37,907 bases of DNA from a virus (Duplodnaviria; Caudoviricetes): IMG/VR virus record IMGVR_UViG_3300042196_000209, positions 1 to 37,907 of that record. One strand, 5' to 3'. A model generated the notes under the pieces. The model was not told the origin of the DNA, made no database searches, and saw only the letters and a list, made by a program, of their open reading frames with translations. The position numbers were made by a program, and so were the translations under genes. Positions 758 to 26,854 of this stretch are shown here, piece by piece. Position 1 is the stretch's first letter; every line of letters starts with the position of its first letter.

Positions 758-2910
758 TCACCTTCGACTACGAGGCCAGGTCCCACAGCAACGTCACGAG
801 GGTCGGCGCCTACAAGTACGCCGAGGACCCCTCTACGGAGGTGACGTGCGCGGCGTGGCTGTTCGACGACGACCCCCAGGCCGGTCACTGGCATATAGGG
901 ACGACCGGCCAGGGCGAGTGGGAGCCCGTGCCGCAGTCGGACGACGACGTGCTCGACGAGCTCGTGCGACGCGTCAGGGACGGCGAGCCCATAGAGGCCC
1001 ACAACGCCTTCTTCGAGCGGGTGATGTGGGAGCAGGTCTGGCTGCGCATGCTCCCCTGGCTACCGCTCCCGAGGCCGGAGCAGTGGCACTGCAGCGCGGC
1101 CAAGGCCGCCTCCTTCGCACTCCCCAGAAAGCTGGAGGTCCTGGCACAGGTCCTCCAGGTGCCCGAGCAGAAGGACATGGACGGCCACCGGGTCATGCTC
1201 AAGCTCGCGAGGCCGGCGAGGCCTACCGCGGACAACCCCGACCGACAGTGGTGGGAGGACCCAAGGGACATACGTCGCGCCTGGAGGTACAACATCCAGG
1301 ACGTCCGCACCGAGCACGCATGCTCTAGGCAGATGAGGCCCCTGTCAGACTTCGAGCGCCAGGTCTGGCTGCTCGACCAGCGCATGAACCGCCGCGGCGT
1401 GCGCTGCGACCGCGAGATGGTGGGCCGGGCGATCGACCTGGCGGACGCAGAGGTGATCCGTCTGAACGCCGACATCTGCGAACTGACCGGCGGCGCGGTG
1501 AAGAAGGGCACCAGTCGGCCGTCGCTCAAGAAGTGGGTGAACGCACAGGGCGTAGAGCTGCCGGGCACGACCGGCAAGACCATAGAGCGCGTCCTCGACA
1601 GCGAGGTCATGTCGCGAGAGATCGAGAGGGTCCTACGCATGAGCCTAGAGGTCAACAAGACCTCCATCAAGAAGTACCACTCCATGCTGCAGAGGCTTTG
1701 CGACGACGGCCTCCTGCGCGACCTGCTGATATACTGCGGGGCCTCCACCGGGCGCTGGGCAGGTTCCGGCGTGCAGCCGCACAACTTCCCCCGCGGCGGC
1801 ATCAAGGACATAGACGTCGCCTGCGAGGTCATATCCTCCGGCGACAGGTGGGCGATCGAGTTCCTCTTCGGCCCGGTAATGGAGCACCTGTCGCACTCGA
1901 TACGGGGCGCCCTGACCGCGCGGGAGGGCCGCGAGCTCATCGTAGCGGACTACGCGGCCGTCGAGGCCCGCGACGTGTTCTGGCTCGCCGGCGACGAGGC
2001 CGGGCTGAACGACTTCAGGCTCTCGGACGCCAAGGAGGGCCCGGGGGTCTACTGCGTCATGGGTGAGCAGATATTCGGCTACCCGATAAACAAGGACGAC
2101 CACCCCCTCGAGCGCTTCGCCGGCAAGCAGGCTATCCTGGGCTCCGGCTTCGGCATGGGGCCCGACAAGTTCCACGAGACCTGCCTGAAGTACGACGTCG
2201 ACCTCCCCATGGACATCTGCAGGCGCGCCATATACACCTACCGCGACGTGCACGAGCCCGTGCAGCGGATGTGGGGCGAGCAGGAGGCGGCGGCGAAGGC
2301 GGCGGTCGCGCACCCCGGCAGGGTGTTCCCGTGCGGCCGCGTCAGCTGGGCCGTGCGCGGTCGGTTCCTGCACTGCAAGCTCCCGTCCGGTCGACTGCTG
2401 TCGTACTACAAGCCGAGGCTGTCGCGCATGCTGAACTTCAGGTTCAAGGTGCTGAAGCCCGGTCGCGAGTCTGACCTGTCCCTGAACCAGGACCTACGAG
2501 GAGGCGAGGGCGGCGCTCTGAGGCGGGCCGCGTTCCGGGCCCGCGCGATATGCAAGGAGAACCGGTGGAAGCTCGTCGACGAGCCGCCAAAGATGCGTGA
2601 GCAGACGGTCCTGCGGTTCGAGGGCATGGGCAAGAAGTGGGGCCTGCAGGAGACCTACGGCGGCAAGCTGGTGGAGAACATCACGCAGGCCGTGGCCAGG
2701 GACCAGCTCGCGGAGGCGATGGTGCGGATCGACGCCGGCGGCGTTTACGACATGCTGCTGTCGGTGCATGATGAGACCATAGGCGAGGTCGACGTGGGCG
2801 CCGGCGACCTGAGGGAGTTCGAGCTGGAGATGGCTCGACCCCCGCTCTGGTGCCCTGACGCGCCGCTCGTCGCAGTGGGCTGGCGCGGAGTGAGGTACCG
2901 AAAGGCATGA
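754..2910 (+). CDS. polA: Family A DNA polymerase with 3'-5' exonuclease; probable ATA start at 754
   Basis: ExoI IITFDYEARS...GAYKYAEDPSTEV lies upstream of the GTG at 841; ExoII HNAFFE; ExoIII YNIQD; motif A DYAAVEAR; motif B KQAILGSGFG; motif C VHDE. Confidence 0.95.
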   Translation: MITFDYEARSHSNVTRVGAYKYAEDPSTEVTCAAWLFDDDPQAGHWHIGTTGQGEWEPVPQSDDDVLDELVRRVRDGEPIEAHNAFFERVMWEQVWLRMLPWLPLPRPEQWHCSAAKAASFALPRKLEVLAQVLQVPEQKDMDGHRVMLKLARPARPTADNPDRQWWEDPRDIRRAWRYNIQDVRTEHACSRQMRPLSDFERQVWLLDQRMNRRGVRCDREMVGRAIDLADAEVIRLNADICELTGGAVKKGTSRPSLKKWVNAQGVELPGTTGKTIERVLDSEVMSREIERVLRMSLEVNKTSIKKYHSMLQRLCDDGLLRDLLIYCGASTGRWAGSGVQPHNFPRGGIKDIDVACEVISSGDRWAIEFLFGPVMEHLSHSIRGALTAREGRELIVADYAAVEARDVFWLAGDEAGLNDFRLSDAKEGPGVYCVMGEQIFGYPINKDDHPLERFAGKQAILGSGFGMGPDKFHETCLKYDVDLPMDICRRAIYTYRDVHEPVQRMWGEQEAAAKAAVAHPGRVFPCGRVSWAVRGRFLHCKLPSGRLLSYYKPRLSRMLNFRFKVLKPGRESDLSLNQDLRGGEGGALRRAAFRARAICKENRWKLVDEPPKMREQTVLRFEGMGKKWGLQETYGGKLVENITQAVARDQLAEAMVRIDAGGVYDMLLSVHDETIGEVDVGAGDLREFELEMARPPLWCPDAPLVAVGWRGVRYRKA

Positions 2911-3140
2911 CACGGAGGACGAACGAGCTCTGCGTAGAGTGCGGCGCGGCTAGGAACTGCCACACGCCGCTGAACCGCGCCACGGGCCTGTGCTGCGACG
3001 GGTTCACCGCCGCCGTCAAGCGCGTGCTCGCCAAGGACACGGAATACTGGGACGCCTGGGGCGGCTCCACGGAGGACCGCTCCACGTACAACCTGGGCGA
3101 CGGCTGTCGCCGTGTGCCCTCCAGAGGGGGCCAAGACTGA
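2907..3140 (+). CDS. Cys-rich hypothetical protein
   Basis: ATGA overlap with the polymerase stop; CVECG...CH...CCDGF. Confidence 0.6.
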   Translation: MTRRTNELCVECGAARNCHTPLNRATGLCCDGFTAAVKRVLAKDTEYWDAWGGSTEDRSTYNLGDGCRRVPSRGGQD

Positions 3141-3838
3141 TGCGAAATGTACAGGCCGACAAGTCGGCGAAGCTGATAGCCGACCTCGAGGGCGACGACT
3201 TCAGCTGCCACGCCGGGCCGCTGAGTACGCGGCTCGAGTGGCAGGAGCTGAGGCGGCGCGTGCTAAGCCTTGATACACAGGAGCACGAGCTGTACACCGT
3301 CGAGGACGGCTGGATAGAGCTGCACTCCGGCGAGCGGTTCTTCTACAGGAGCCCCACAGCGGACATGATCCACCTGTCGGACATAGCCGCGTCGCTGGGA
3401 AAGACCGCGCGCTACGCCGGACACACACACACGTTCTACTCGGTGGCAGAGCACAGCTGCCTGCTAATGAGGTGGGCGCGCCGTAACATCGTGCCCGACC
3501 GCCGGCTGCTGCGGACCATACTCATGCACGACGCGACAGAGGCGTACATCCCGGACGTGCCGAGGCCGCTGAAGCACATGGTGCCACTGTTCAGAGAGTT
3601 CGAGGGCAGCATAGAGCGGGTCATGTCGCCGAAGTTCGACCTCATCTCGCCGCACCCGGCGATCATCCGCGAGATCGACAGCCGCATACTACGCGACGAG
3701 CGCGAGCAGGCCATGAACCCGAGCGGCAACGACTGGGGCACCGACAAGCTCGAGCCCCTGGGCGTGAAGCTGCACCTCTGGCCGCCCGAGGTCGCGATAG
3801 ACAACTTCCTCGGGGACTACGCCGAGGTCGCGCCATGA
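3140..3838 (+). CDS. HD-domain hydrolase (YfbR-like 5'-deoxynucleotidase family)
   Basis: RYAGH...YSVAEHS...LMHDATEAYIPDVPRPLK...D; ATG at 3140 coupled to the upstream TGA. Confidence 0.85.
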   Translation: MRNVQADKSAKLIADLEGDDFSCHAGPLSTRLEWQELRRRVLSLDTQEHELYTVEDGWIELHSGERFFYRSPTADMIHLSDIAASLGKTARYAGHTHTFYSVAEHSCLLMRWARRNIVPDRRLLRTILMHDATEAYIPDVPRPLKHMVPLFREFEGSIERVMSPKFDLISPHPAIIREIDSRILRDEREQAMNPSGNDWGTDKLEPLGVKLHLWPPEVAIDNFLGDYAEVAP

Positions 3839-4098
3839 CCACATGGAAGCCTGCGGAGGAGATGTACGCCATCGTGGGGGGTCCGCCATCGGACTGGTAC
3901 AACCTCAGGATAGTCGACGAGGAGACGCAGGCAGAGGTCGGTGAGGTAGTGGAGGTGAACCTGCTCGAGGGCTGGCTGCGGCGGCACGTGACCGACGCTG
4001 ACGGCCACAAGGTAATCGAGGGCGTGAACGGCGGTAGGCAGGTGGCCTGCGAGCGCCTGGAGGGCAGGTTCACGCTCGAGAGGCTCGTCGAGGATTGA
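3835..4098 (+). CDS. Hypothetical protein
   Basis: Start/stop overlaps on both sides; codon usage like neighbouring genes. Confidence 0.65.
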   Translation: MTTWKPAEEMYAIVGGPPSDWYNLRIVDEETQAEVGEVVEVNLLEGWLRRHVTDADGHKVIEGVNGGRQVACERLEGRFTLERLVED

Positions 4099-5531
4099 GG
4101 ACCGAGCCGTACAGACACCAGGCCGAGGAGTACGAGGCCTCCAAGGGCCTCGAGGCCCGCGCGCTCCTGTGGCAGATGCGAACTGGCAAGTCCAAGGTCA
4201 TAGTCGACACGGCGTTCCACCTGCGCGACGACCTGGCAATAGAGGGCGCCATCATCAACGCGCCGAACGGCGTCCACGCGAACTGGACCCGTCGAGAGCT
4301 GCCTAAGCACTCGTGGGACGACGGCTACTCTGCCCTCGCCTGGAGGTCGCGGCGCCCGGACATGGACGAGGTGGCGGCGCACTTCGCGCGTCACGCCGAG
4401 TTCCCCATCCTGGCCGTGAACAACGAGGTCCTGCCGAACCCGCGAGCGCAGGCGGCCATAAAGGGCATGCTGAAGCGCGGCCGACTCCTGTACGTCGCGG
4501 ACGAGTGCCACGACTTCCGCAGCCCCGGCTCCAGGCGCACTAAGCTGGCCCGCGGGCTGTCCGCCAAGTGCGCCTACAGGCGCATACTCACGGGCACAGC
4601 CGTCCTGAACAGCCCGCTTCACGCCTTCTCGCAGTTCGAGCTCCTGCAGAAGGGGGCCCTCGGCTACACGCGGTACGACGAGTTCCGGTCGCGCTTCGCG
4701 ACTGCGGTCATGCACACCACGAGGAGCGGGCGGCAGTTCCCGGAGTGGAGGCCGCGCGACCTGGGCGAGCTGCGCGAGAGGCTGGCTAGGTGGTCGTCCG
4801 TGGTCCTGCGGGCAGACGTGGACGACATGCCTGAACTGATCGAGGACGAGCGCCTGGTCTACATGAGCGCGTCGCAGTCCGAGGCCTACCTGCGGATGGT
4901 GAAGGAGTGGAAGCTCGACCTCGACGCCGGCTCCGTCTCCGTGAAGGAGGGTGGCGCGAGGATGATGAAGCTCCAGCAGATACTCGGCGGCTTCGTCATA
5001 ACAGACGACGGCGAGGTCAGATCCATAGAGGACAACCCCCCGCGCCTGGACGCGGTCGTAGAGCAGGTGGTCGGCACACTGCCCGGCAAGACCATAGTCT
5101 GGTGTCGCTTCCGGGAGGACATAAGGCGCGTCGTGGCCCGGCTCCGCGAGGAGGGCTTCGACCCGGTGGAGTACCACGGCGGCGTGTCGGCGGGTCTCAG
5201 GGACGAGACCGAGGACCGGTTCCGCGACGACCCGACCGCGAACCCACTTGTCGGCCAGCCCCAGTCGGGCGGCCAGGGGCTCGACCTGTCGACGGCGGAC
5301 ACGGTGGTCAACTACAGCCACTCGCACAACTCCATAATCCGCGAGCAGTCCAAGGAGAGGGCCACGGCCATCGGCGGCAAGTCCGTGGGCCTCGTGGACC
5401 TCAGGACGCCCGGCTCGGTGGACGACGTCATACTGGAGTGCGCCGCGGAGAACCTGAGCGTGTCCGAGTACCTCACCGGCCCCGGGCTGAAGCTGCGGCT
5501 GCAGGAGATACTGGACGCCACAGATGTGTGA
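4095..5531 (+). CDS. SNF2-family (superfamily 2) DNA helicase
   Basis: QMRTGKS Walker A, DECH box, LTGT motif III, GQGLDL, QSKERA motif VI. Confidence 0.92.
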   Translation: MRTEPYRHQAEEYEASKGLEARALLWQMRTGKSKVIVDTAFHLRDDLAIEGAIINAPNGVHANWTRRELPKHSWDDGYSALAWRSRRPDMDEVAAHFARHAEFPILAVNNEVLPNPRAQAAIKGMLKRGRLLYVADECHDFRSPGSRRTKLARGLSAKCAYRRILTGTAVLNSPLHAFSQFELLQKGALGYTRYDEFRSRFATAVMHTTRSGRQFPEWRPRDLGELRERLARWSSVVLRADVDDMPELIEDERLVYMSASQSEAYLRMVKEWKLDLDAGSVSVKEGGARMMKLQQILGGFVITDDGEVRSIEDNPPRLDAVVEQVVGTLPGKTIVWCRFREDIRRVVARLREEGFDPVEYHGGVSAGLRDETEDRFRDDPTANPLVGQPQSGGQGLDLSTADTVVNYSHSHNSIIREQSKERATAIGGKSVGLVDLRTPGSVDDVILECAAENLSVSEYLTGPGLKLRLQEILDATDV

Positions 5532-5542
5532 GGGGACACTGG

Positions 5543-5571
5543 CTGACGCCCCGCCATTCGTGTGGCATAGT
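5543..5571 (+). promoter_or_regulatory. Putative sigma70-like promoter CTGACG-N17-CATAGT
   Basis: Intergenic; 17-bp spacer; TG before the -10; same pattern as 5939 and 15757. Confidence 0.45.
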
Positions 5572-5611
5572 GGGAGGGAACGAGCACTGAACCGAATAGG
5601 AAGGGCGTCAC

Positions 5612-5923
5612 ATGAGCGAGGATAAGAAGAAGGTCGCGGGCATCGGCATGATCGCGATCGAGGCAATCTTGGCCGGCAAGACAAACGAGCAGGCGTTGGA
5701 GGCCGTCAGCAAGGCGCACCCGGGGGCGAACACTGGCATGGCCTCCATCAACTGGTACCGGAACAAGCTGCGCGCGGAGGGTGCCAAGCTGAAGGGCTCC
5801 AGCAAGCCGGTGCCGACCAGCCGCGAGCTGGCCGCTGCGGCCAAGAAGGTCAACGGCGCGGCCCCAAAGAAGGCCCCAAAGAAGGCCCCAAAGAAGGCCG
5901 AGCCGACCGATCCGTTGGCTTAA
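5612..5923 (+). CDS. Small basic DNA-binding protein with histone-like APKK repeats
   Basis: Helical/HTH-like core (TNEQALEAV...HPGANTGMASINWYRNKLR) and an (APKK)x3 tail. Confidence 0.7.
   Translation: MSEDKKKVAGIGMIAIEAILAGKTNEQALEAVSKAHPGANTGMASINWYRNKLRAEGAKLKGSSKPVPTSRELAAAAKKVNGAAPKKAPKKAPKKAEPTDPLA
5861..5899 (+). repeat. 12-bp tandem repeat GCCCCAAAGAAG x3
   Basis: Read directly; encodes APKK repeats. Confidence 0.9.
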
Positions 5924-5967
5924 CCATAAATTAGGGGGCTCACGTGACCCCTCGAATATGGTATAAA
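5920..5967 (+). promoter_or_regulatory. CtrA-like box TTAA-N7-TTAG followed by putative promoter CTCACG-N17-TATAAA
   Basis: TTAACCATAAATTAG at 5920-5934; -35 at 5939-5944; -10 at 5962-5967. Confidence 0.5.
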
Positions 5968-5994
5968 GGGTCCACCTCATTGGTGGACCCTTTA
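5964..5994 (+). terminator. Perfect 13-bp hairpin, probable intrinsic terminator
   Basis: TAAAGGGTCCACC-tcatt-GGTGGACCCTTTA downstream of 5612..5923. Confidence 0.65.
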
Positions 5995-6062
5995 ACCTTA
6001 TGGAGCTCAGCATGCTACTGACCAAAGAGCCGTCTACCAACGCGGACTGCCGGACGGCGGAC

Positions 6063-6764
6063 ATGCCCGGCGATCTCAGCTACCAGGCCGTCTACTACAT
6101 GAACGGCCCGGCCCCGAAGTGTGGCAGGAGCGACTTCGCGATCAAGGACCCGCCGAACGCCGGCTGGTCGTTCGCGTTCGTGATCGGGGCTCCGGACGCG
6201 AAGCGGGTCACGCTGTTCTGCCCGTTCACGATCCAGTCGTACCAAATCCCGGCCACGGCCGGCGAGCTCAGGAAGCGCGAGCGCCTGCACATGAGCAACG
6301 CCCGAAAGAGCTGGCTCATAGCGCGGATCACGGAGAACTGGCGCGACTTCGTAAAGCTGGGCCTGGCCCGGGACTACGACGTGGCCGCCGTGGTGCTGAC
6401 CAGGCTCGGCGCCGAGGTGCCGACGGCGTCTGTACCGGACGTCACTGTCGGGCCGTCCACAGAGGCCGACGGCTACGTACCGTCCGTCTCCCGTGAGCGC
6501 AAGGAGCGCCGCGGTGGCAAGGACCACGCGGACGCGCTGCTGAGACCGGTCGCCAGGTCGAGCAAGCGGGGCCAGGTGGCGGAGTTCTTCCTCGGCTCTG
6601 AGCCGAGGTCGGTGCGGGAGTGCATGGCCCGCATGGACATGTCGCGCAACAGCGTGCTGTCCGCGCTCCACGTGCTGAACAAGACCCACGGCCTCGGCTA
6701 CGAGGTGCTGAACGACACGGCCAGGGTGGACGCGCCGACCGACTGGAATATATGGGGCGAGTGA
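6063..6764 (+). CDS. Hypothetical protein with C-terminal winged-helix-like segment (start uncertain, 6000-6063)
   Basis: C-terminal RSVRECMARMDMSRNSVLSALHVLNKTHGLGYEV resembles a wHTH. Confidence 0.65.
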   Translation: MPGDLSYQAVYYMNGPAPKCGRSDFAIKDPPNAGWSFAFVIGAPDAKRVTLFCPFTIQSYQIPATAGELRKRERLHMSNARKSWLIARITENWRDFVKLGLARDYDVAAVVLTRLGAEVPTASVPDVTVGPSTEADGYVPSVSRERKERRGGKDHADALLRPVARSSKRGQVAEFFLGSEPRSVRECMARMDMSRNSVLSALHVLNKTHGLGYEVLNDTARVDAPTDWNIWGE

Positions 6765-6765
6765 C

Positions 6766-6945
6766 GTGCCACAGTTCGACGTGACACGGAGGGCCGACGG
6801 AGCCTGCCTGATCGTCATGACCGAGCGGTACAGTACGGTAGCGGTCGCGCACTGCCCGCCGGGGTGTCACCCCACCGAGACACAGGTCCGCGAGTGCGTG
6901 CGCGCGATGATGGGTGAGCCCGTCCATGTCGACCAGACTTGTTGA
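6766..6945 (+). CDS. Hypothetical 59-aa protein (not in the ORF track)
   Basis: GTG at 6766, MPQFDVTRRADGACLIV...DQTC, TGA at 6943-6945; fills the gap. Confidence 0.45.
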   Translation: MPQFDVTRRADGACLIVMTERYSTVAVAHCPPGCHPTETQVRECVRAMMGEPVHVDQTC

Positions 6946-7366
6946 CGCCCCGCCGCGCGGACGGCTGTTTCAGGAGGCGCTCCGGCGTCGTCCGTTCTGG
7001 ATGCTTGTCGCGTGCTGCCTTGTGAACCTGACCACGTGGGAGCAGGCGAGGCCCGTTCTGCGCAGCCTCATGCGGCACCACACCATAGGGTCGCTCGCCT
7101 CGGCCGACCCCGCCTCGATCGAGCCGTTGCTGAGGCCGCTCGGCCTCCAGCGCGTCAGGTCCGAGCGCTTGACAAGAATGGCCCGTGCTTGGTTGCACGC
7201 GAGGCCAAGGGGGTATAATGACGTGATTGGACTGCCCGGGTGTGGCAAGTACGCAGGTCACTCATGGGCAATCTTTATAGATGGCTGTCTCAATGTACAG
7301 CCCGACGACGGTAAATTAAATTGGTACTTGGACAAAATACGCAGTGAGCACGACAGAGCAGCATAG
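6926..7366 (+). CDS. MBD4-like HhH-GPD DNA glycosylase (T/U:G mismatch type)
   Basis: LFQEAL..PFWMLVACCLVN.T, LLRPLGL, HhH LPGCGKYA..S..IF, and QPDDGKLNWY matching the MBD4 catalytic HPEDHKLNKY; no Fe-S cysteine cluster. Confidence 0.85.
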   Translation: MSTRLVDAPPRGRLFQEALRRRPFWMLVACCLVNLTTWEQARPVLRSLMRHHTIGSLASADPASIEPLLRPLGLQRVRSERLTRMARAWLHARPRGYNDVIGLPGCGKYAGHSWAIFIDGCLNVQPDDGKLNWYLDKIRSEHDRAA

Positions 7367-7422
7367 GCGCTGGCGAGCTAATAACAGGGACAAGGTCGCT
7401 ACGAACTCAAGAGCCTACATAG

Positions 7423-7720
7423 CATGCCTATCCGGTTGTCGCCCAAGGAGACTAGATGATGAAGTCTGAATACGCGCCGATCACCATTGATCAGAAGCTC
7501 GGATATTTGGTTGAGGAGTGTGGCGAAGTTCTAGCGGCAGTCGGAAAGACACAGCGCTGGGGGCTTAATAGCTTCAATCCGGAGCCTGGCGCCAGCCGCG
7601 AAACAAACCGCGAATGGATATTGCGGGAGTTGGACGACCTTGAGAACGCCTGCCACCTTGTTCGCTCGGCCTTGGACGGCTCAATGGGTGGTAGCAATGG
7701 GTAACAACCGGATAGGCATG
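7423..7720. mobile_element. Non-autonomous 298-bp insertion cassette with 23-bp TIRs and an 8-bp TSD (CTACATAG)
   Basis: Left end CATGCCTATCCGGTTGTCGCCCA; right end TGGGTAACAACCGGATAGGCATG (21/23 inverted match); CTACATAG at 7415-7422 and 7721-7728. Confidence 0.88.
7456..7704 (+). CDS. MazG-like nucleotide pyrophosphohydrolase (cargo of the cassette)
   Basis: LVEECGEV...ELDDL (EExxE...ExxD); AAGGAG RBS just inside the left TIR; stop codon inside the right TIR. Confidence 0.75.
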   Translation: MMKSEYAPITIDQKLGYLVEECGEVLAAVGKTQRWGLNSFNPEPGASRETNREWILRELDDLENACHLVRSALDGSMGGSNG

Positions 7721-8078
7721 CTACATAGAGCGGCACTTCGCCCGGTACATGCTCAAGAGAACTCGGGACAGCGCACGGCTCAGGAAGCTAGATTTCAGCC
7801 TTACCGAGGAATGGATACAGGGGTACCTCGATATCGGTCGGTGCCAGGTTACAGGTCTTACCTTTGATTTTAAGGTCGGTACTGGTGCCGGCAATAATGG
7901 CCGCAATCCATACGGTCCTAGCATAGACCGAAAAGACCCATCTAAAGGCTATACTGGGGACAACTGCCAGGTCGTTTTGTGGATGTTGAATGCGGCAAAG
8001 GGGTCTTGGAGCATGGACGAAGTGATGACGCTCGCAAGAGCGTTGATCGACTCAACTAACACGTAAATAGGAGGAGAG

Positions 8079-9209
8079 ATGGGCGCATACCGCAACTCGC
8101 TGCGTGAGGAGGGTTCCAGGAAGGACCTGCTCAGGGCACTGGAGCACACGTGGCATCAGATCGACGAGCTGAATGGCGAGAGCGTCGTGCCGTCGATGGC
8201 CACAGACGTCGAGCGCTTCAACCGGGAGCTGTTGGGCTTTCCCGTGCCGACCGTGCCGACCAAGCTACGCGGCTCCGGTCGGCTCATGCGGTCGAAGCAC
8301 CTGCTCGAGGAGCTGCAGGAGTTCACCGACGCCACGACGGCGTTCGACCAGGCGGACGCCCTTGTCGACCTCGTGTACGTAGCGCTCGGCGGGCTGATCC
8401 AGATGGGCATGTGCCCCGGCGCGGCGTTCGAGGAGGTGCACCGTACGAACATGCTCAAGCGCAGGGGCGCGCAGGCGAAGCGCCCGGACAGCTGCGGCTA
8501 CGACGCCGTGAAGCCGAAGGGCTGGACCGCGCCTGACCTGAAGAAGCTGCTCCTGGTGTCCCTGGACGACGTCGACTGGCTGGCCGAGTACAGGTGGATG
8601 ACCGACGGCCCGCAGGCGGAAGTGTGCTTTCATGTGTCTGAGCCTGAGCCGATGCCAAAGCCGAAGATACTCGTACTCGGCTACGCGCGCCACGGCAAGG
8701 ACACCGTCGGCGAGATGCTTCGCGACAGGTACGGCCTGAGCTTCACTTCGAGCAGCATGTTCTGCGCAGAACGGGTGATGATGCCATACTTCCGCCGCAA
8801 GGGCAACGCGGAATTTAGGGATAAACCCGACGCTATACAGGACACGCCGCACTACCTAAACGCACAGGAGTGCTTCGAGGACCGCGCCAACCACCGCGCG
8901 GAGTGGTACGAGGCCATACGTGATTTCAACCAGCCCGACGCGACGGCGCTCGCCCGCGCTATCCTCGAGGAGCACGACGTCTACTGTGGCATCCGCAGCA
9001 AGGCCGAGCTCAGCGCGTGCCGGGTCGCGGGCGTCTTCGACGTAATCGTCTGGATCGACCGCACCGACCACCAACCGCCCGAGGACCGGTCGTCCTGCAC
9101 TGTCGAGCCGTGGATGGCCGACTACGTGATCGACAACAACGGCACGCTGGAGGACCTCGCGCTCAACGTAGAGCGACTGGCGACGAGCATGGGCCTGGAG
9201 GCTGCCTGA
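8079..9209 (+). CDS. Fusion of an all-alpha (MazG/DR2231-like) dNTP pyrophosphatase and a P-loop dNMP kinase
   Basis: N-terminal LLEELQEF...DALVDLVYVALG...EVHRTNMLK...VKPKGW; C-terminal LGYARHGKDT P-loop...DYVIDNNGTLEDL; AGGAG RBS. Confidence 0.85.
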   Translation: MGAYRNSLREEGSRKDLLRALEHTWHQIDELNGESVVPSMATDVERFNRELLGFPVPTVPTKLRGSGRLMRSKHLLEELQEFTDATTAFDQADALVDLVYVALGGLIQMGMCPGAAFEEVHRTNMLKRRGAQAKRPDSCGYDAVKPKGWTAPDLKKLLLVSLDDVDWLAEYRWMTDGPQAEVCFHVSEPEPMPKPKILVLGYARHGKDTVGEMLRDRYGLSFTSSSMFCAERVMMPYFRRKGNAEFRDKPDAIQDTPHYLNAQECFEDRANHRAEWYEAIRDFNQPDATALARAILEEHDVYCGIRSKAELSACRVAGVFDVIVWIDRTDHQPPEDRSSCTVEPWMADYVIDNNGTLEDLALNVERLATSMGLEAA

Positions 9210-9210
9210 C

Positions 9211-10035
9211 ATGTACCAGACCTACCCGAACATCGTGAGGCACATCATGGGCCCCGACGCCGTGACCGAGGTCAACACCCGCACTGGTCACGAGATCAGG
9301 ATGCTGCCGTACCCGATCGGCTTCCAGGTCGACCTGCGCTCCGACCATATACCTCTGCCCGGTAACCGGCGCGTGTTCCCGCAGACCGCGGCGGCTGAGC
9401 AGGCGTGGTTCCTCAGCGGCAAGAGGGACGTCAACTGGCTGCGCAAGTACTGCAAAATCTGGGACAAGTTCACGGAGGACGACGACGTCACGGTCGACGC
9501 GGCCTACGGCTACCGCTGGCGCAGTCACTTCGGCCGCGACCAGCTGGGCCTGGCGATCGATGCACTAGAGAAGAACCCGACGGACCGACGCGTGTTCGTG
9601 TCTGCGTGGGACCCCGCGATGGACGGTCTCGGCGCCGAGGGTCAGCGGAACGTGCCGTGCCCCGTCGGCTTCACGCTGAGCGTCGTCGAGGGCCACCTAA
9701 ACTCCGCGCTGATGATACGCTCGAGCGACGTGTTCGTCGGCCTACCGTACGACGTCATCGGCCACGCGCTGCTCATGGACGCCGTGGCCGTCAGCCTGGG
9801 CGTCAGGGGTCTCGGCTGGATGCACGTCACGCTTGCGCATCCGCACATCTACGACGTGCACTACGACATGGCCCGCGAGAGCCTGGGGAGGACCTGGGCG
9901 GAGAAGCCCGTCATGCCGAGCTGGTCGGTAGAGGAGATCGAAGCGGACCCGGACGGCTACGTCGCCAAGGTCAAGGCGCTCACCGACCGCGTGAGACCGC
10001 ACGACTTCAACCCGAAGCCGGAGGTCACCCAGTAG
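9211..10035 (+). CDS. Thymidylate synthase homologue, predicted dCMP-specific (methyl- or hydroxymethyltransferase)
   Basis: TRTG, AEQAWFLSG, AYGYRW, catalytic PC, RSSDVFVGLPYD (Asp at E. coli TS Asn177), HPHIY. Confidence 0.88.
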   Translation: MYQTYPNIVRHIMGPDAVTEVNTRTGHEIRMLPYPIGFQVDLRSDHIPLPGNRRVFPQTAAAEQAWFLSGKRDVNWLRKYCKIWDKFTEDDDVTVDAAYGYRWRSHFGRDQLGLAIDALEKNPTDRRVFVSAWDPAMDGLGAEGQRNVPCPVGFTLSVVEGHLNSALMIRSSDVFVGLPYDVIGHALLMDAVAVSLGVRGLGWMHVTLAHPHIYDVHYDMARESLGRTWAEKPVMPSWSVEEIEADPDGYVAKVKALTDRVRPHDFNPKPEVTQ

Positions 10036-10112
10036 GCGCCCGTAGCTCAACCGGATAGAGCACCGATTTCCTAGGTCGGGGGTTGCAGGTTCGAGCCCTG
10101 CCGGGCGCACCA
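10036..10112 (+). tRNA. tRNA-Arg (anticodon CCT)
   Basis: Full cloverleaf: acceptor GCGCCCG/CGGGCGC, D arm GCTC/GAGC, anticodon loop TTCCTAG, TTCGAGC T loop, encoded CCA. Confidence 0.95.
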
Positions 10113-10129
10113 ACAGGGAGGGTCACACC

Positions 10130-10588
10130 ATGATACTGGGACAGGTCACCACGGGCACGCTGGAGTGGGACCGCCGCATGTACGGCCTAGCGCTCGAGGC
10201 CGCGTCCTGGTCCAAGGACCCGGTCCGCAAGGTCGGCAGCGTGGTCGTTTCCGCGGACCGGCGCAGGATGTCGCCCGGCTACAACGGCTTCCCGCGCGGC
10301 ACCCCGGACGTCAAGCAGCACCTCATGGACGAGACGATGCGTCAGATGCTGATGGTGCACGGCGAGGTCAACTCGATCATAAACGCGGGCTTCGACGTAG
10401 AGGGCTGCACCCTCTACGCGACTAAGTACCCGTGCCACGCCTGCGCCGGCATAATGGCGAACTCCAGGATCGCGCGCCTCGTGTGCCCGGCCCCAGACTA
10501 TGACAACCCTAAGTGGGACGAGTCCTACAGGGTGGCGTCTGAGGTCCTAGCGAACGCGTCCGTGGAGGTGGACAGATGCGACTCCTGA
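10130..10588 (+). CDS. dCMP deaminase (ComEB-like, Zn-dependent)
   Basis: SKDP..KVG, GYNGFPRG, HGEVNSI, PCHAC. Confidence 0.92.
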   Translation: MILGQVTTGTLEWDRRMYGLALEAASWSKDPVRKVGSVVVSADRRRMSPGYNGFPRGTPDVKQHLMDETMRQMLMVHGEVNSIINAGFDVEGCTLYATKYPCHACAGIMANSRIARLVCPAPDYDNPKWDESYRVASEVLANASVEVDRCDS

Positions 10589-11007
10589 TGGCGGTCTCAG
10601 TCGACGGGTTCCTCTGCATCGGCCCCGACGACGACATGACCTGGACCGGGCCCGCGGACAAGACGCTGTTCCGCGCGCTGACCTCTGTCGGGGGCATATG
10701 CGCGGCCGGCTCGGCGACGTGGCGGATCATGCCGCGTCTCGAGGGCCGGCAGCTCATACCGGTCTCACGGAGCGGCTACACCCTGCACAGGCTCGAGGCC
10801 GAGCACCCGGAGGCGTGGCTCATAGGGGGACCAACGATCGCCGTGGCCGCGCTCAGGCTGGGACTCGTGACGGAGATGCACCTGTCCGTCGTGCACAGTT
10901 ACCGCCTAGGGTCGGGCGTCAGCGTCCGATGCCTGGGGGACCTGAGTCGGCCGTCGATGCAGACGCACTTCGGGGAGGACCTGACGCACCGGGTCTACCG
11001 GCGATGA
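10576..11007 (+). CDS. Dihydrofolate reductase
   Basis: MAVSVDGF...MTW...DKTLFRALT...GSATW..MPRLEGR...WLIGG. Confidence 0.82.
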   Translation: MRLLMAVSVDGFLCIGPDDDMTWTGPADKTLFRALTSVGGICAAGSATWRIMPRLEGRQLIPVSRSGYTLHRLEAEHPEAWLIGGPTIAVAALRLGLVTEMHLSVVHSYRLGSGVSVRCLGDLSRPSMQTHFGEDLTHRVYRR

Positions 11008-15588: not shown

Positions 15589-15750
15589 ATGGAACTAGAG
15601 CAGGCCATCCAGGAGCTACGTCGTGAGGCCGCACACTGGTCTGGTTACGACGAGGAGACGAGGCATCTCCTCCGTCAGCAGGCCGCAGAGAGGGCCTCCA
15701 TCGTCCGCAAGGATCACTCCAGCGAGGTCTACCCCTCAACGATGGGTTGA
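15589..15750 (+). CDS. Hypothetical protein
   Basis: GGAG RBS; downstream of the promoter. Confidence 0.55.
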   Translation: MELEQAIQELRREAAHWSGYDEETRHLLRQQAAERASIVRKDHSSEVYPSTMG

Positions 15751-15756
15751 GGGGGG

Positions 15757-15785
15757 CTCGCGAGGGCCCCTCATAGGGGTATACT
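15757..15785 (+). promoter_or_regulatory. Putative promoter CTCGCG-N17-TATACT within a palindrome
   Basis: TGAGGGG-ggCTCGCGAGgg-CCCCTCA inverted repeat overlaps the -35. Confidence 0.55.
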
Positions 15786-15817
15786 GGAGGGACCTTGAAT
15801 ATAGGAGCACCGTTCAG

Positions 15818-16249
15818 ATGAAGCCCAGTGTAAGAGAATTGCTGGTCGTCCACAACCTAAGGGCGACCGCGACGGGTCAGAGACCCCTAGTGGGTTGGAA
15901 GTCCGGCAAGGACAAGCTGCTCGCGAGGATCGAGGCCCTGCCGAAGATCAAGACGGACAAGAAGCCGGTCGCGGCAAAGAATGACCTCGCCGACTACGAG
16001 GCCACGATCGCCGCGATCGGCGTCAGCGCACGTGACACGATACAGGTCGCCTCTGAGAAGTTGCTCGAGGCCACTGCCTACGAGCACGACGGCAGAAAGT
16101 GGGGTATCCCATACGACGTCGTCCTGACCGAGATCAGGCGCGTCTTCCCCGACTGCAGGACCACGGTCGCCTGCCTCAGGTGGTACGCAGTCCGCATGAA
16201 CGAGGTCGGCACGAGGCTGCCGAAGCGTAAGAGGAGCTTCAAGCCATGA
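15818..16249 (+). CDS. Basic protein with an HTH-like C-terminal domain related to 5612..5923
   Basis: AGGAG RBS; YDVVLTEIRRVFPDCRTTVACLRWY. Confidence 0.7.
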   Translation: MKPSVRELLVVHNLRATATGQRPLVGWKSGKDKLLARIEALPKIKTDKKPVAAKNDLADYEATIAAIGVSARDTIQVASEKLLEATAYEHDGRKWGIPYDVVLTEIRRVFPDCRTTVACLRWYAVRMNEVGTRLPKRKRSFKP

Positions 16250-22341: not shown

Positions 22342-25300
22342 CTATACCCTGGGGAACGGTCCCGCGGGCGGCGTGAAGTTCCCACTGTACCTGCCGACGC
22401 CCTTCGTCACGCGTATCTCGTCCTGGGAGCCGTGCATCTCTCGGTTGGCTACGCTCGGGTCGTCGCCTATGACGAGCGAGGCCCCGCTAGCAGTTATATC
22501 ATAGGAGGCGGTGTGGCTGACACCCTCCTGTACGCCGTTCACGAATAGCCTGGTCACGCCGTCCCGGCGGCTGACGGCCAGGTGCCTCCAGCCGCCACCC
22601 AGTACGTTGGTCGTGCCGGTGATGAGCTGCGAGCTCGAGTGGAACCACGCGTACGTCCCGGTTATTAGCAGGAACAGCCTCCACCACCCGGTGCCGGATG
22701 TGCCGCGGGTTATGACCCCGTCGGACCCGAAGCCCGCGGTCGGGTTGACCCACGTCTCCACAGTGAAGTCGTCGGTGCCGAAGTCGAAGTCCGTCAGGGT
22801 GCCGGTCACGTTCACGCGCGCAGTGGTCGCCCCCGACAGCAGGAGGGCGGCGGTGCCGAACTTCTTCACCGCGGTGTCGAGCTCGGCCCCGGGGGTGTCG
22901 AACGTGAGGGTGTGCGCGCTCGCGCTGTCGTCCGTGGAGGTCGTGGCGCCGTCCGCTCCGTCGAGGGCGAGCAGCAGGACCGTGAAGGCCAGGAACGGGT
23001 CGACGCCCACGAGCTCGAAGAGCTGACGCGTGTAGCGTCCCCGGCCGACGGTCGCGCTGACCTGGTAAATCTGGGCCTCTACGGTCGGCACGACGGATGC
23101 CGACAGCCCGGTCGCGGTGTTGTACTCCGCGGTCGTCAGTGTCGTGGCCGGCGAGGTGAGCCCGGTCCTGGTCAGGAATGGGACGGACGCCCCGACCTCG
23201 AAGAAGTCCACGTCGTACAGCTCCGCCTGCTCGTTGAGCGGGACCGTGTCGGTGCCGTCCAGTAGCTCGCCGTTGAAGCGCGTCCTGCGGACCCAGGTCA
23301 GTGCGAGGTCGCCCCCGGGCCTGGTGGCCACTACCTGCGCGACCGAGTAGGGCATGAGGTCCTGGCCGGTGTACGCAAAGCTGGTCGTCGGCGCGTCCTC
23401 GAGGAGTGTCCCGAACGTCACCGCGCGGTGCTGCGTGGTGACGTCCAGGAGGTCGAGCGGCAGCTGCATCGCCTCTATCGGCGACACGTCGAGCAGCACC
23501 CACCGCTCCCCGGGCACGTGATCCCTGGAGTTGTCCTCGGTGCCGAGCCGACCGCGGAGCAGTCTCGACAGCCTCACTGTGCCTGGGTCCGTCTGCGTCA
23601 CGTTCACGAACTGTATGATCTCCGGCAGGCCGTCGCCGCGCACGATCGCTATGGCGTTGGCGCCGTTGAGCACCTCCAGGTCCGTGGAGGATGAGAAGTC
23701 GCCTATGCCGCGGACAACCTTCAGGTCTACCATAGAGCTCTCGTCCCAGGTCGTCGTGGTAGACGGGTCCGCCAGCGTGCCTGCCACGGTGCCCCATGTG
23801 GCCTCGACGGATGAGCCGCCGATCTCGTCGAAGCTGGAGGCCCCGTCCCGCGACCGCATCAGCGTAGCCCCGGGCCACGAGTCCTCGTAGGCGGACACCG
23901 CCCAGTAGGCCCGGCTGAACTGCTGCAGGCTCGCGTCCACGGCCCTGAGTAGCGGCAGGTCTAGCAGGTGCAGCTTGGTCGGCAGCGCGGAGGATATGAA
24001 CTGCGCGGGGTGACCGAGGCCGCCGTCCGCGGCCACGGCGCTGACGTTGGACTCGGCGTCCTCCTGGGTGGCCGTGAACTCCGTGTCCAGGTCCGCACCC
24101 AGGTCTATCCTCGAGCCGCGCAGGCGCCGTGTCTCGCCGCGAAAGTTCAGCTCGAACACGTCTGTCGGGTCCAGCCTCATGTACCTCCAGGGGAGCACGC
24201 TCTCGACCGAGACGCGCTCAGACCATGAGGTGTAGAGCCACCTCTGCGCGAGGCGCTTCGCGTCGGGCGCCAGCATTACGATCGGCAGGTCCAACGTTAC
24301 CTCGTTCCGGGAGTACTGGCTGGGCGTGGGCAGGCTGACCCGCTTGTCCGACTGTACGCCGGCCTGGTAGTCCTTGTCCTTGTCCGCGAACCTGACCGAG
24401 AAGCGGCCGGGGAGTTCCACCTCCTGCGCGCGCACCTCTTTTATGACTTCAGAGTTGCCCGCGGTCGACGCCCGGCCGAGGTAGTCCTCGTCAATCGTCA
24501 GCACAGACGCGCCGCCACGTCGGACGAAGCGCATGCGCCAGTCTGTCTCAGCGCCCTCGAACAGGTAGCCGTTTATGAGCGGCTCCAGGGCGGATCGACC
24601 CGAGGCCTGCTTGGTCAGGCTGTAGCCCAGGACAGTCTCCGAGACGAGGTCCGACACGTCGAACAGCGTGTCGTCCAGGCCCGAGCGTCGTGAGATGTCC
24701 GCGACGACGTCGCTGAGCGGCACGCCAAGGCCGACCTTGCGGCCGAGCAGTATGCGCACCACCCTGTTGGAAGCGGGGTTCGTGACGTTGACCCGGGACA
24801 GCAGTATGGAGTGGTTCCGCGGGTCGTAGCCGGCCCGTTGGTAGTTTGCCTCTGCGCCGGGGAAGGGTATCCCCAGGTCTAGTTCGTCGACGACGGCGAG
24901 GTCGTCCGTGCTTATCGTGTACACGACCCCGACCGCCGATCCGCCGCCGGCGCCGTTGCCGAACGCGAACACGCCCGAGGTCGCGTACTGCTCCTGTGAG
25001 CCGAAGCCGAGTGCGAGGTTCCTGGCTAGTACAGCGCCCGTGTCCACGTCCACCTTGACCATGCTGACGGCGTTGGACAGGATGAGCGCGTTCTCTGACG
25101 GTACGTGACACCACCCGCTTAGGTCGCCCGTGCCGGCCCAGTCCGTCCCGCCCTTCAGGTATGTGCCGACCAGGCGCTTCACTGGGTTCGCCGCGGATAG
25201 ACCGAGGGGACCGACGTTGACGCCCGCTGTCACCTCCCAGACGTCGATCTGTGAGTCGTTCTCCTGACCGACGAACAGTCGTCTGTTCACGTGGTCCTGC

Positions 25301-26430
25301 ATGACGTGGGCGCCGCGGCCTATGTCTGTGTCCAGGTGGTTGTCCTGGACGAACGCGCCAGACTCGTTCTTGTAGAGGACCACGAAGCCCCCATCGCCGA
25401 GTAGGCTCATGCCCGAGAAGACGTACACGTCCACGAAGCCCTGGCCCAGGTTCGGGTCGCCCACGCGTAGCACGCCGATGGAGACGGGTCTCGGGTAGTG
25501 CTGGAGCGTGCCCCATGACCCGAGCGCATTGGAGATGCCGAACTGCAGCCCGGTGGCCTCGAGCGTCACCGGGTCGTACTGTATCACCGGGGCGAAGTTC
25601 GGACCGCGCTGCCCCCAGACAAAGCCGTCCATGCAGTACCGCACGGCATCCGAGAACAAGTCGCCTATGCTGTTGTTCAGCACCACGGTGGACATGGAGC
25701 CCAGGGTCGACCGGCTTACGCCCGAGGCCTTGAGTATGTAGGCGTCGTCTGTGAAGGGGTCTATGTAAAAGTGGCTCTCCTGGTCCGAGCCCGTGGGCGA
25801 GCCCGGCACAACTTGCCCCGAGAGCAGGATCAACGGGTCGAACGGCGCGGTGACCTGCGAGCTGTACGCTATCTCCGCGGTGATGTTCGGTATGCGGTTG
25901 CCGAAGTTAGCCAGGGGCCACAGCTCCGCCACCAAGTAGCACATGCCGCGGTGGGCCGGGACGTTGCCCACGCCCTTGTCCGCCTCCATGAGGAAGTCTG
26001 GCTGCTGGGTCTCCGAGCCCCTGTAGAACCTGAACTTGTAGCCGCCGAAGCTCGTTGAGCCCGTCCGGTCATAGATCAGCTTGCCGTCGGCCCACAGCCT
26101 GAGCAGGTCATCTGCCTCGCCCTCGCCGAAGGACACGGCGAAGGACGCGAAGTACGAGAACGACGTTAGCGAGCTCTTCGGTGCACCGCCGCCCTTGCCG
26201 CCCTGCGTCTGTGTGCTGACCACCTCCTGAATGCCTGGGGACCATATGACGTTGCCGCTGGTGCGGGGAGTGCCATAGTGCACGAATATGGGCCCGCCGT
26301 ACGCCGACGACGTCACGCTCAGGTCGCTAAGCCTCGGCCCCACCTGCGACTGCCCCTTCGACGGGGCCAGGAGGTTCAGGACGATGCCGACGCCGATGTT
26401 GACCGCGGCCGAGACAAGTAGTGTTGCCAT
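22342..26430 (-). CDS. Central tail fibre / host-specificity protein (GTA g15-like) with C-terminal LamG domain
   Basis: GPRLSDL..TSSAYG...GNVIW, VPAHRG..Y, FGNRIPN, LLRGRLGTE, W.RRTR; C-terminal FTVETW...WRHLAV.R...LFVNG...DEIRVT. Confidence 0.88.
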   Translation of the reverse strand: MATLLVSAAVNIGVGIVLNLLAPSKGQSQVGPRLSDLSVTSSAYGGPIFVHYGTPRTSGNVIWSPGIQEVVSTQTQGGKGGGAPKSSLTSFSYFASFAVSFGEGEADDLLRLWADGKLIYDRTGSTSFGGYKFRFYRGSETQQPDFLMEADKGVGNVPAHRGMCYLVAELWPLANFGNRIPNITAEIAYSSQVTAPFDPLILLSGQVVPGSPTGSDQESHFYIDPFTDDAYILKASGVSRSTLGSMSTVVLNNSIGDLFSDAVRYCMDGFVWGQRGPNFAPVIQYDPVTLEATGLQFGISNALGSWGTLQHYPRPVSIGVLRVGDPNLGQGFVDVYVFSGMSLLGDGGFVVLYKNESGAFVQDNHLDTDIGRGAHVMQDHVNRRLFVGQENDSQIDVWEVTAGVNVGPLGLSAANPVKRLVGTYLKGGTDWAGTGDLSGWCHVPSENALILSNAVSMVKVDVDTGAVLARNLALGFGSQEQYATSGVFAFGNGAGGGSAVGVVYTISTDDLAVVDELDLGIPFPGAEANYQRAGYDPRNHSILLSRVNVTNPASNRVVRILLGRKVGLGVPLSDVVADISRRSGLDDTLFDVSDLVSETVLGYSLTKQASGRSALEPLINGYLFEGAETDWRMRFVRRGGASVLTIDEDYLGRASTAGNSEVIKEVRAQEVELPGRFSVRFADKDKDYQAGVQSDKRVSLPTPSQYSRNEVTLDLPIVMLAPDAKRLAQRWLYTSWSERVSVESVLPWRYMRLDPTDVFELNFRGETRRLRGSRIDLGADLDTEFTATQEDAESNVSAVAADGGLGHPAQFISSALPTKLHLLDLPLLRAVDASLQQFSRAYWAVSAYEDSWPGATLMRSRDGASSFDEIGGSSVEATWGTVAGTLADPSTTTTWDESSMVDLKVVRGIGDFSSSTDLEVLNGANAIAIVRGDGLPEIIQFVNVTQTDPGTVRLSRLLRGRLGTEDNSRDHVPGERWVLLDVSPIEAMQLPLDLLDVTTQHRAVTFGTLLEDAPTTSFAYTGQDLMPYSVAQVVATRPGGDLALTWVRRTRFNGELLDGTDTVPLNEQAELYDVDFFEVGASVPFLTRTGLTSPATTLTTAEYNTATGLSASVVPTVEAQIYQVSATVGRGRYTRQLFELVGVDPFLAFTVLLLALDGADGATTSTDDSASAHTLTFDTPGAELDTAVKKFGTAALLLSGATTARVNVTGTLTDFDFGTDDFTVETWVNPTAGFGSDGVITRGTSGTGWWRLFLLITGTYAWFHSSSQLITGTTNVLGGGWRHLAVSRRDGVTRLFVNGVQEGVSHTASYDITASGASLVIGDDPSVANREMHGSQDEIRVTKGVGRYSGNFTPPAGPFPRV

Positions 26431-26431
26431 G

Positions 26432-26854
26432 TCAGTCCGTCCTGAAGCTGAACACAGACACCATACTCAGCCTCCTCTCCTCGGTGAGCGCCTCCCTGAC
26501 CACCATGCGGGCGGGCAGGTACGCGTGTATCACCCACATCAGGCCGGCCGCGTCTCGCTCCAGTATGCCGACGTGGCAGGGGTGCCGCGGCTCCCTGAAT
26601 ACGGCCACCATGCCGTGGTCGGCCTCGGACCGCGGGCGCTCCGTCAGCTGGGCCCTCGCCAGCCTCAGGACGTCGGCCGGGTTCGGGCGCCGCGGGTAGT
26701 CCAGTGTATCGTACGTCGTCAGGCCAAGCGCGTGACCCACTTTTATGGGCACGCCTATGCAGTCCACGCCGAACCTGTCGCGGCCCTTGTCCCTGAACGG
26801 CACGCCGAGCCAGGTCTTCGCCTCGGCCACTATGAGGTCCTCGAGCGCGCTCAT
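26432..26854 (-). CDS. NlpC/P60 tail-tip peptidase (GTA g14-like)
   Basis: WLGVPF...GR...GVDCIG...HVGI...IHA. Confidence 0.9.
   Translation of the reverse strand: MSALEDLIVAEAKTWLGVPFRDKGRDRFGVDCIGVPIKVGHALGLTTYDTLDYPRRPNPADVLRLARAQLTERPRSEADHGMVAVFREPRHPCHVGILERDAAGLMWVIHAYLPARMVVREALTEERRLSMVSVFSFRTD

Follow-up and report, generated by a model that had tools for sequence, protein, structure and literature searches.

An MBD4-type DNA glycosylase in the 5-methylcytosine module of an Xp12-type phage: a candidate T:G repair enzyme

We find that an uncultured 37.9-kb virus, the whole record of which (37,907 nucleotides, hereafter the window) was analysed here, encodes an MBD4-type DNA glycosylase domain, an identification confirmed by sequence, predicted fold and tree. 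The gene is part of a module of the kind found in phage Xp12, and the prediction that the genome of the window phage is fully 5-methylcytosine (5mC) is well supported by the sequence of this module. We therefore propose, with a probability of about 0.75, that the window glycosylase would act in the repair of T:G pairs that arise from deaminated 5mC. At the comparative level, related phages that do not have the gene accumulate more C>T changes. If correct, the proposed role offers an answer for Xp12-type phages to the question of how a wholly 5mC genome limits a C-to-T decay that uracil repair cannot counter.

The glycosylase frame opens with an ATG at 6926 and ends with a TAG at 7366 (Table 1), an alternative GTG start at 6914 being possible. 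In homologues, gene prediction often places the start at Met26 and so loses Gln16, as in P0002 with 121 aa. A phmmer search against the PDB gave 18 sequences at E<=1, of which the first 15 were MBD4 (E 1.5e-13 to 5.5e-12, residues 9-144), followed by MIG (1kea, E 0.022) and endonuclease III (E 0.085). Identity to the mammalian MBD4 glycosylase domain is ~31%. The alignment contains the motifs LFQE, PFW, NLT, LRPLGL, LPGCGKY, SWAIF and PDDGKLNWY, and the MBD4 motifs that an earlier sequence-only reading had picked out by eye (N.T, PLGL, GKY, P.D.KLN.Y and others) are thus recovered by a search program. The predicted structure leads to the same assignment. With the AlphaFold2 model (mean pLDDT 95.9, input alignment of 49 sequences), Foldseek placed MBD4 at all of ranks 1-16 (TM 0.80-0.84), with NTHL1 (0.63) and MIG (0.66) coming only afterwards. 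Likewise, VIA-align gave Z 18.8-19.7 and rmsd of 1.5-2.1 Å over 129-133 residues for MBD4, and clearly lower scores (Z <=13.4) for Nth, MIG and MutY. The features of the HhH-GPD superfamily are present, namely LPGCGKY at 103-109, then D128, and the match in fold; the Pfam HhH-GPD family scores 25.2 bits (E 2.1e-5), just below its cut-off of 26.2, and PHROG and NCBIfam searches with the protein returned no match.

The C-terminal 4Fe-4S motif is absent, because the only cysteines, at 30, 31, 106 and 121, do not make it, and the protein ends 18 residues past D128. There is also no Pfam match to a methyl-binding domain (MBD) in the 146-aa protein, and since the reading frame closes upstream of 6911 according to a frame scan, there is no room for an in-frame MBD. 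In both respects the earlier description of the protein holds. A stand-alone domain is the usual form of this family, as 75 homologues of 80-256 aa were found, compared with 5 among longer proteins, for which 7,993 candidates were scored. The database label, endonuclease III, is ruled out by the fold, the missing Fe-S motif and Tyr109. Several ORFs overlap the gene (on the reverse strand at 6815-7261, and others), and the conservation of this region is explained by the forward frame. A promoter and terminator scan of 5400-8200 revealed nothing above shuffles on the coding strand.

Table 1. The glycosylase gene and its neighbours in the window
Feature	Coordinates	Strand	Remarks
Family A DNA polymerase	841..2910	+	
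HD-family 5'-deoxynucleotidase, YfbR-like	2990..3838	+	True start probably downstream of listed GTG
SNF2-type helicase	4095..5531	+	In conserved gene order
Small basic protein, function unassigned	5612..5923	+	Related domain fused to glycosylase in some relatives
Conserved unknown gene, phrog_11422	6000..6764	+	Usually immediately upstream of glycosylase
MBD4-type HhH DNA glycosylase, stand-alone, 146 aa	6926..7366	+	Sequence, predicted fold, tree; residues noted: Q16, N34, L35, T36, W38, L72, L74, Y109, D128, K130
Small MazG-like NTP pyrophosphohydrolase, phrog_4856	7456..7704	+	
NTP pyrophosphohydrolase (PRA-PH) fused to dNMP-kinase-like domain	8079..9209	+	
Thymidylate-synthase homologue	9211..10035	+	Asp181 at N177-equivalent; predicted Xp12-type dCMP methylase
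dCMP/dCTP deaminase family	10130..10588	+	Predicted to convert 5mdC to dT nucleotides
Dihydrofolate reductase (DHFR)	10576..11007	+	

In a quick tree of 80 rows over 133 columns, which had 4 outgroup rows and did not include Ogg or AlkA, the window protein groups with Xp12-type sequences; the split that separates every MBD4-like row from Nth, MutY and two MIG-like rows has an SH-aLRT of 87. Together with the best PDB E-value (1.5e-13) and the structural agreement (Z 19.7 at 1.6 Å), this placement with MBD4 rather than with Nth bears out the assignment to the MBD4 catalytic domain made in the sequence-only reading. That reading had also called the domain eukaryotic. The homology to the eukaryotic domain stands, but a large viral and environmental branch exists as well. 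A profile search gave 1,853 cluster representatives at E<=1e-10, a figure that counts eukaryotic members too. In the nearest Atlas clusters, viruses make up 75-100% of the few members for which a taxon is known. Animal and green-lineage MBD4 form one clade (97) and fungal-like rows another (99), with the backbone unresolved. A topology test does not reject a single clade holding the 54 non-eukaryotic rows (p-AU 0.7), and the tree so constrained is 18 log units better than the free one. Consequently, the nesting of eukaryotes within viral rows in the quick tree is at most tentative, and transfer may have gone in either direction.

The genomic setting of the glycosylase points to its likely substrate. 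The order polymerase, helicase, two unknowns, glycosylase, pyrophosphohydrolase/kinase, thymidylate-synthase homologue, deaminase and DHFR is the same in Xp12 and Donnerlittchen, and the window has the features of an Xp12-type module, namely an Asp-type synthase, deaminase, DHFR, pyrophosphohydrolase/kinase and the conserved order. In Xp12, all C is replaced by 5mC, and its synthase served as the positive control for 5mdCMP production (10.1101/2024.12.05.627091). Asp at the N177 position marks dCMP specificity (PMC8670742); the window synthase has this residue and is 48% identical to the tested Xp12 enzyme, in agreement with the earlier supposition that every C is methylated, which we likewise predict. 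The remaining genes may be understood along the same lines. The PRA-PH/kinase fusion likely removes dCTP and phosphorylates 5mdCMP, the formation of dT nucleotides from 5mdC nucleotides is the proposed role of the deaminase family (10.1101/2024.12.05.627091), and DHFR fits a reductive transfer, that is, of a methyl and not a hydroxymethyl group.

Several other properties of the window are worth pointing out. An HNH/endonuclease-VII-like ORF (7749-8066) and a tRNA-Arg(CCT) gene (10036-10112) interrupt the otherwise conserved module. Two paralogous genes (5612-5923 and 15623-16249) share a small basic domain recurrent in these phages, and in P0086, P0226, P0227 and P0078 the glycosylase carries a related domain as a fusion (HMM E 7e-9 to 7e-4 among the proteins collected for this analysis; hhalign 93.5%). 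This domain might be a DNA-targeting partner, or the fusions might merely reflect adjacency. The minus strand at 22342-29354 encodes GTA-like tail genes (Rcc01698, DUF2460, Gp84_N and BR0599) with Laminin-G insertions; these tail genes suggest an alphaproteobacterial host.

Based on the module and the fold, the following pathway can be envisaged. The phage would methylate dCMP before replication, so that every C becomes 5mC, as indicated by Asp181, the gene order and the tested Xp12 enzyme. By established chemistry, 5mC deaminates to T, which is invisible to uracil glycosylase; the phage deaminase and the misinsertion of T opposite G may add further T:G pairs. The glycosylase would then flip out T opposite G, and, judging from its fold and pocket, Gln16, Tyr109 and the backbone of Phe15 would read the base. 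Cleavage by Asp128 would leave an abasic site, with no lyase step. Finally, host AP endonuclease, a polymerase using the 5mdCTP pool and ligase would presumably restore 5mC:G. In a full-5mC genome, such an enzyme would need neither a methyl reader nor sequence specificity. When deaminated Xp12 DNA is treated with just the glycosylase domain of mouse MBD4, C>T errors decrease in every context (10.1101/2023.03.02.530819), which means that this DNA is a suitable substrate and that no methyl reader is needed.

The active site is largely that of MBD4, a family of enzymes that excise T, U and 5hmU opposite G. In MBD4, T or U is recognised through Gln449, Tyr540 and the backbone of Val448, catalysis depends on Asp560, and Lys562 stacks against the base; recognition of the orphan G falls to main-chain carbonyls, those of Arg468 and Leu506 (PMC3479182, PMC3458566). 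The window glycosylase keeps the equivalents of Gln449, Tyr540, Asp560 and Lys562 (Q16, Y109, D128 and K130) as well as those of Asn467, Leu506 and Leu508 (N34, L72 and L74); N34, L72, Y109 and D128 are invariant among 76 close sequences aligned with hmmalign, the set used for all counts in close homologues. Tyr109 aligns with the Lys of the E. coli Nth HhH motif. Since that Lys is the lyase residue of Nth, a monofunctional enzyme with no lyase activity is expected. On its sequence, the window glycosylase is a member of the MBD4 domain lineage, yet without two of its residue features. The sequence-only reading had missed three differences from mammalian MBD4, at Leu35, Trp38 and His112. At the finger, a basic residue in MBD4 (Arg468; Lys in plants) that occupies the space vacated by the flipped base, Leu35 replaces Arg468 (among the close homologues Leu occurs in 48, Arg in 17 and Gln in 6), whereas eukaryotic rows have Lys in 43/54. 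The reading of the orphan G through main-chain carbonyls may survive this change. In the pocket, Trp38, kept in 71/76 close homologues, replaces Gly471, a position at which Trp is found in 0/54 eukaryotic rows and Gly in 38/54, with Cys and Ile also occurring.

These two replacements raise the question of whether the enzyme still acts on T:G. The Cα of Gly471 (Gly445 in mouse) lies 4.0 Å from the thymine methyl (PMC3458566), so Trp38 might narrow the C5 pocket and, along with the Leu finger, turn the protein into a G-mismatch glycosylase with shifted specificity, directed mainly at U:G or at an oxidised or damaged pyrimidine. We consider this unlikely. It is established that a genome without C yields little U:G, which host Ung would cover, and phages with the same Leu and Trp have the lower C>T signature described below. 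Indeed, Leu35 and Trp38 are identical in all 13 gene-plus genomes, so that both changes are compatible with that signature. The altered residues, being at the DNA interface, could also be taken in favour of a role in host takeover, in which the enzyme would excise bases from unmodified host or competitor DNA and spare the phage's own 5mC DNA. The location within a set of nucleotide-pool genes, as is typical for lytic takeover, and the patchy distribution, like that of an accessory gene, would fit as well. Nonetheless, such a weapon, an alternative raised in the sequence-only reading, is very unlikely and lacks support. Gln16, Tyr109 and Lys130, the residues that read T/U, are unaltered, mammalian MBD4 cuts none of C:G, 5mC:G and 5hmC:G (PMC3458566), and attack on foreign DNA predicts neither a C>T excess in gene-minus genomes nor a link with post-replicative C5-methyltransferases. 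We thus return to T:G repair as the preferred role of the window glycosylase.

To characterise mutation patterns, we analysed substitutions in the first 55-60 kb of 24 phage records by blastn projection, considering changes private to one genome; in Bosavirus, singletons were counted at sites with conserved flanks. The 7 gene-plus Bosavirus genomes have 209 C>T, 37 T>C and 216 transversions, and the 3 gene-minus genomes 409, 9 and 84, respectively, so C>T per transversion is five-fold higher in the latter; the result is the same with Bosa as the reference. At four-fold sites, the ratio of C>T to transversions is 126/164 = 0.77 in 9 plus tips and 492/183 = 2.69 in 7 minus tips, with the minus tips phiH2 and phiH1 reaching only 1.6 and 2.0. 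In Pamexvirus, four short minus tips have ratios of 3.7-14, compared with 1.8 and 0.8 for the plus tips G009 and G010. In other words, on recent branches C>T per transversion is ~3.5 to 5 times higher in gene-minus phages, the p-values for this signature treating related tips as independent. The excess is seen in 8/8 neighbour contexts, as expected for a context-free enzyme, and tests for differences in the excess between contexts are inconsistent (p 0.007 to 0.45). Long branches have a low ratio in either gene state (PaMx74 0.18, QDWS359 0.29, G030 0.46 and Donnerlittchen 0.25), so that the contrast rests on short tips, comprising two minus and two to three plus groups. All these values come from related phages and not from the window phage's own lineage.

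The relationship might, of course, have other causes. The window protein might belong to a T:G repair family but be weakened or inactive, or the C>T contrast might stem from another factor, such as polymerase or deaminase alleles or virion lifetime, with the gene being a near-neutral passenger. His112 replaces the nearly invariant Asp that follows GKY (Asp in 72/76 and His in 4/76 close homologues), losses are frequent, with 9 changes of state across a tree of 50 rows, and the independent contrasts are few. There is also an exception, DoCa6, which is gene-plus and yet has a ratio of 3.1-3.7; mosaicism does not account for it, since its C>T singletons are not clustered in the DoCa10-like tract. 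On the other hand, the frame is intact, the catalytic Asp and the Gln and Tyr are kept, and homologues 69-71% identical to the window glycosylase retain every motif. Furthermore, no other gene was found to separate plus from minus Bosaviruses by its presence or absence. Of 117 AXL1 ORFs, just the glycosylase and its shadow on the opposite strand occur in 7/7 plus and 0/3 minus genomes, and none of 122 Bosa ORFs has the reverse pattern (all minus, no plus), the comparison covering the genomes except for their ends. Plus and minus phages also have host strains in common (AXL1/DLP4 and DoCa6/DoCa10). We therefore regard a defective copy or a mere passenger as quite improbable, and an active T:G repair enzyme remains our preferred reading.

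The gene is further associated with a higher GC content. Bosavirus genomes with the gene have a GC content of 0.670-0.682, and those without it 0.649-0.655. For 50 synthase loci the corresponding values are 0.63 (17 plus) and 0.56 (33 minus). In 7 independent pairs taken from a FastTree tree, on average 5.5 agree with the higher GC content in plus and 0.1 oppose it (median p 0.06). PaMx74 is gene-minus, yet its GC content is 68%.

We next consider how closely the glycosylase follows cytosine methylation. It matches 13/50,697 phage records (8 phages, Xp12 included) at 54-55% identity, and all 8 phages carry the Asp-type synthase, DHFR and deaminase. A synthase match is found in 18 of 19 viral glycosylase loci (17 Asp, 1 unreadable) and in 24 of 63 metagenome loci (18 Asp, 6 unreadable, 0 Asn), including 14/14 of those at least 9 kb long; both sets include near-duplicates. 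The 39 metagenome loci without a synthase match are short contigs. Among them is a soil group of near-identical copies with Val at the finger (L055-L064, L066, L070 and L071), the context of which looks bacterial (RecD2 helicase, GNAT) and includes neither the phage module nor such a synthase. The reverse link is weak. Only 17/50 contigs with an Asp-type (Xp12-type) synthase have the gene; in near-complete Asp-type contigs it is present in 7/30 and absent in 23/30, and 10/18 cultured relatives (Bosa, DLP4, DoCa10, PaMx74 and six others) are without it. One of these, PaMx74, is reported to have a fully 5mC genome (10.1101/2024.12.05.627091). The glycosylase gene is thus dispensable. Neither Vsr as a replacement T:G enzyme nor a UDG-family gene was found in any of 50 Asp-type contigs (out of 58 loci with an Xp12-type synthase, the 8 from the shortest contigs having been dropped), and the result for UDG also argues against the U:G specificity considered above. 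The RcRudolph gene that occupies the glycosylase slot is a zinc-finger DUF3268 protein and not a substitute.

A plasmid search gave 2 weak matches, one annotated as MutY and the other MIG-like, and a pattern-limited search of GTDB genomes gave 1 match, on a 1.6-kb contig that also bears a synthase fragment. A 64% identical sequence, P0030, is labelled in its source as hypothetical and assigned to a Brucella assembly, but may derive from a phage contig that was assembled along with it. Among viral structures, a granulovirus HhH-GPD protein matches best (BFVD U5KBB0, TM 0.80), so MBD4-like domains extend to an insect virus.

Distant relatives of the glycosylase accompany other C5-cytosine-modifying genes. 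Cyanophage S-TIM54 (L097:4277-4663, L098 and L099) encodes ThyX, an Asp-type synthase and a C5-methyltransferase in addition to its MBD4-like gene, and the glycosylase as annotated begins close to the Gln position. In L080, the MBD4-like gene occurs with an Asp-type ThyA-like enzyme; in L072 it adjoins a C5-methyltransferase, and P0094 is fused to one. The 273-kb contig G001 encodes an MBD4-like gene and a synthase bearing Asp, whose motif presumably resembles that of T4 hydroxymethylase. In this contig (L021:2464-8749 and 9995-10456), the MBD4-like gene is preceded by ORFs that, judged by eye, look like SAM synthetase, QueF, methionine synthase and SAH hydrolase. Other MBD4-like domains (P0137, P0162, P0228, P0119 and P0180) are fused to a 5-hmdU DNA kinase helical domain, an MT-A70 methyltransferase, PRA-PH plus dGTP diphosphohydrolase, or DUF1599, which suggests links with other base-modification systems.

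It is therefore tempting to speculate more broadly. MBD4-type glycosylases might natively be a large viral family that evolved as matching repair for C5-modified genomes (5mC, 5hmC or methyltransferase-made 5mC) and measurably sets the mutation spectrum and GC content of phages. Eukaryotes would have recruited MBD4 from this viral pool, with the MBD added later, and the Leu-finger/Trp-pocket form would be an adaptation to fully methylated DNA, acting on T:G in any context. As a whole, this scenario is tentative and rather doubtful. Irrespective of it, MBD4, usually deemed a eukaryotic epigenetic repair enzyme, is widened to a viral family, and the question of its origin is reopened. Gene-plus and gene-minus sister phages provide natural pairs that hint at a phage antimutator shaping the GC content. 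In addition, a small T:G glycosylase with no context bias could be a reagent against 5mC-deamination errors in sequencing libraries.

T:G repair of this kind is itself already known from MBD4, MIG and Vsr. In the case of MIG and Vsr, the T:G repair gene travels with a cytosine methylation gene, and both enzymes serve site-specific methylation; on a Thermus plasmid, a MIG-like gene adjoins a C5-methyltransferase. MIG (Methanothermobacter, 1KEA) resembles the phage protein in its HhH motif and in the Tyr at the lyase position, but contains an Fe-S cluster and is only distantly similar (E 0.022, Z 13.2, rmsd 6.2 Å). The Vsr enzyme is unlike it, with another fold and sequence-specific nicking.

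The closest counterparts are Xp12 QNN97216.1, AXL1 gp65 and Donnerlittchen USN14433.1, orthologues 54-55% identical and located in the same gene slot, which are annotated as hypothetical, ENDO3c or endonuclease III. AXL1 gp65 has been described as an ENDO3c protein shared with Xp12, having an HhH motif and a low-confidence catalytic Asp (PMC9206674); the available text of that article draws no link from gp65 to MBD4 or 5mC repair, and that of PMC11946847 mentions no glycosylase. Neither 'MBD4' nor 'HhH' appears in the main texts of 10.1101/2024.12.05.627091 and PMC8670742; HhH-GPD could be listed in the supplement of the former among the families enriched in modified contigs. No publication on a phage MBD4 came up in our search of openly accessible main texts and abstracts. 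Plant, algal and fungal-like MBD4 (P0242, P0245, P0265 and P0221) are similar in that the domain often comes without a Pfam MBD match, so the missing reader is not unique to the phage; they differ in their long extra regions, and in the eukaryotic rows the finger is mostly Lys and the pocket never Trp. Finally, the mammalian MBD4/MED1 domain (4DK9, 4EW4, 6VJW, 1NGN and 4E9G) is matched over 133 residues of the fold, shares the equivalents of the reading and catalytic residues, and likewise has no Fe-S cluster. The phage copy differs in having no MBD or linker, Leu for Arg468 and Trp for Gly471, and whereas mammalian MBD4 serves CpG, the phage enzyme is predicted to serve 5mC at all positions.
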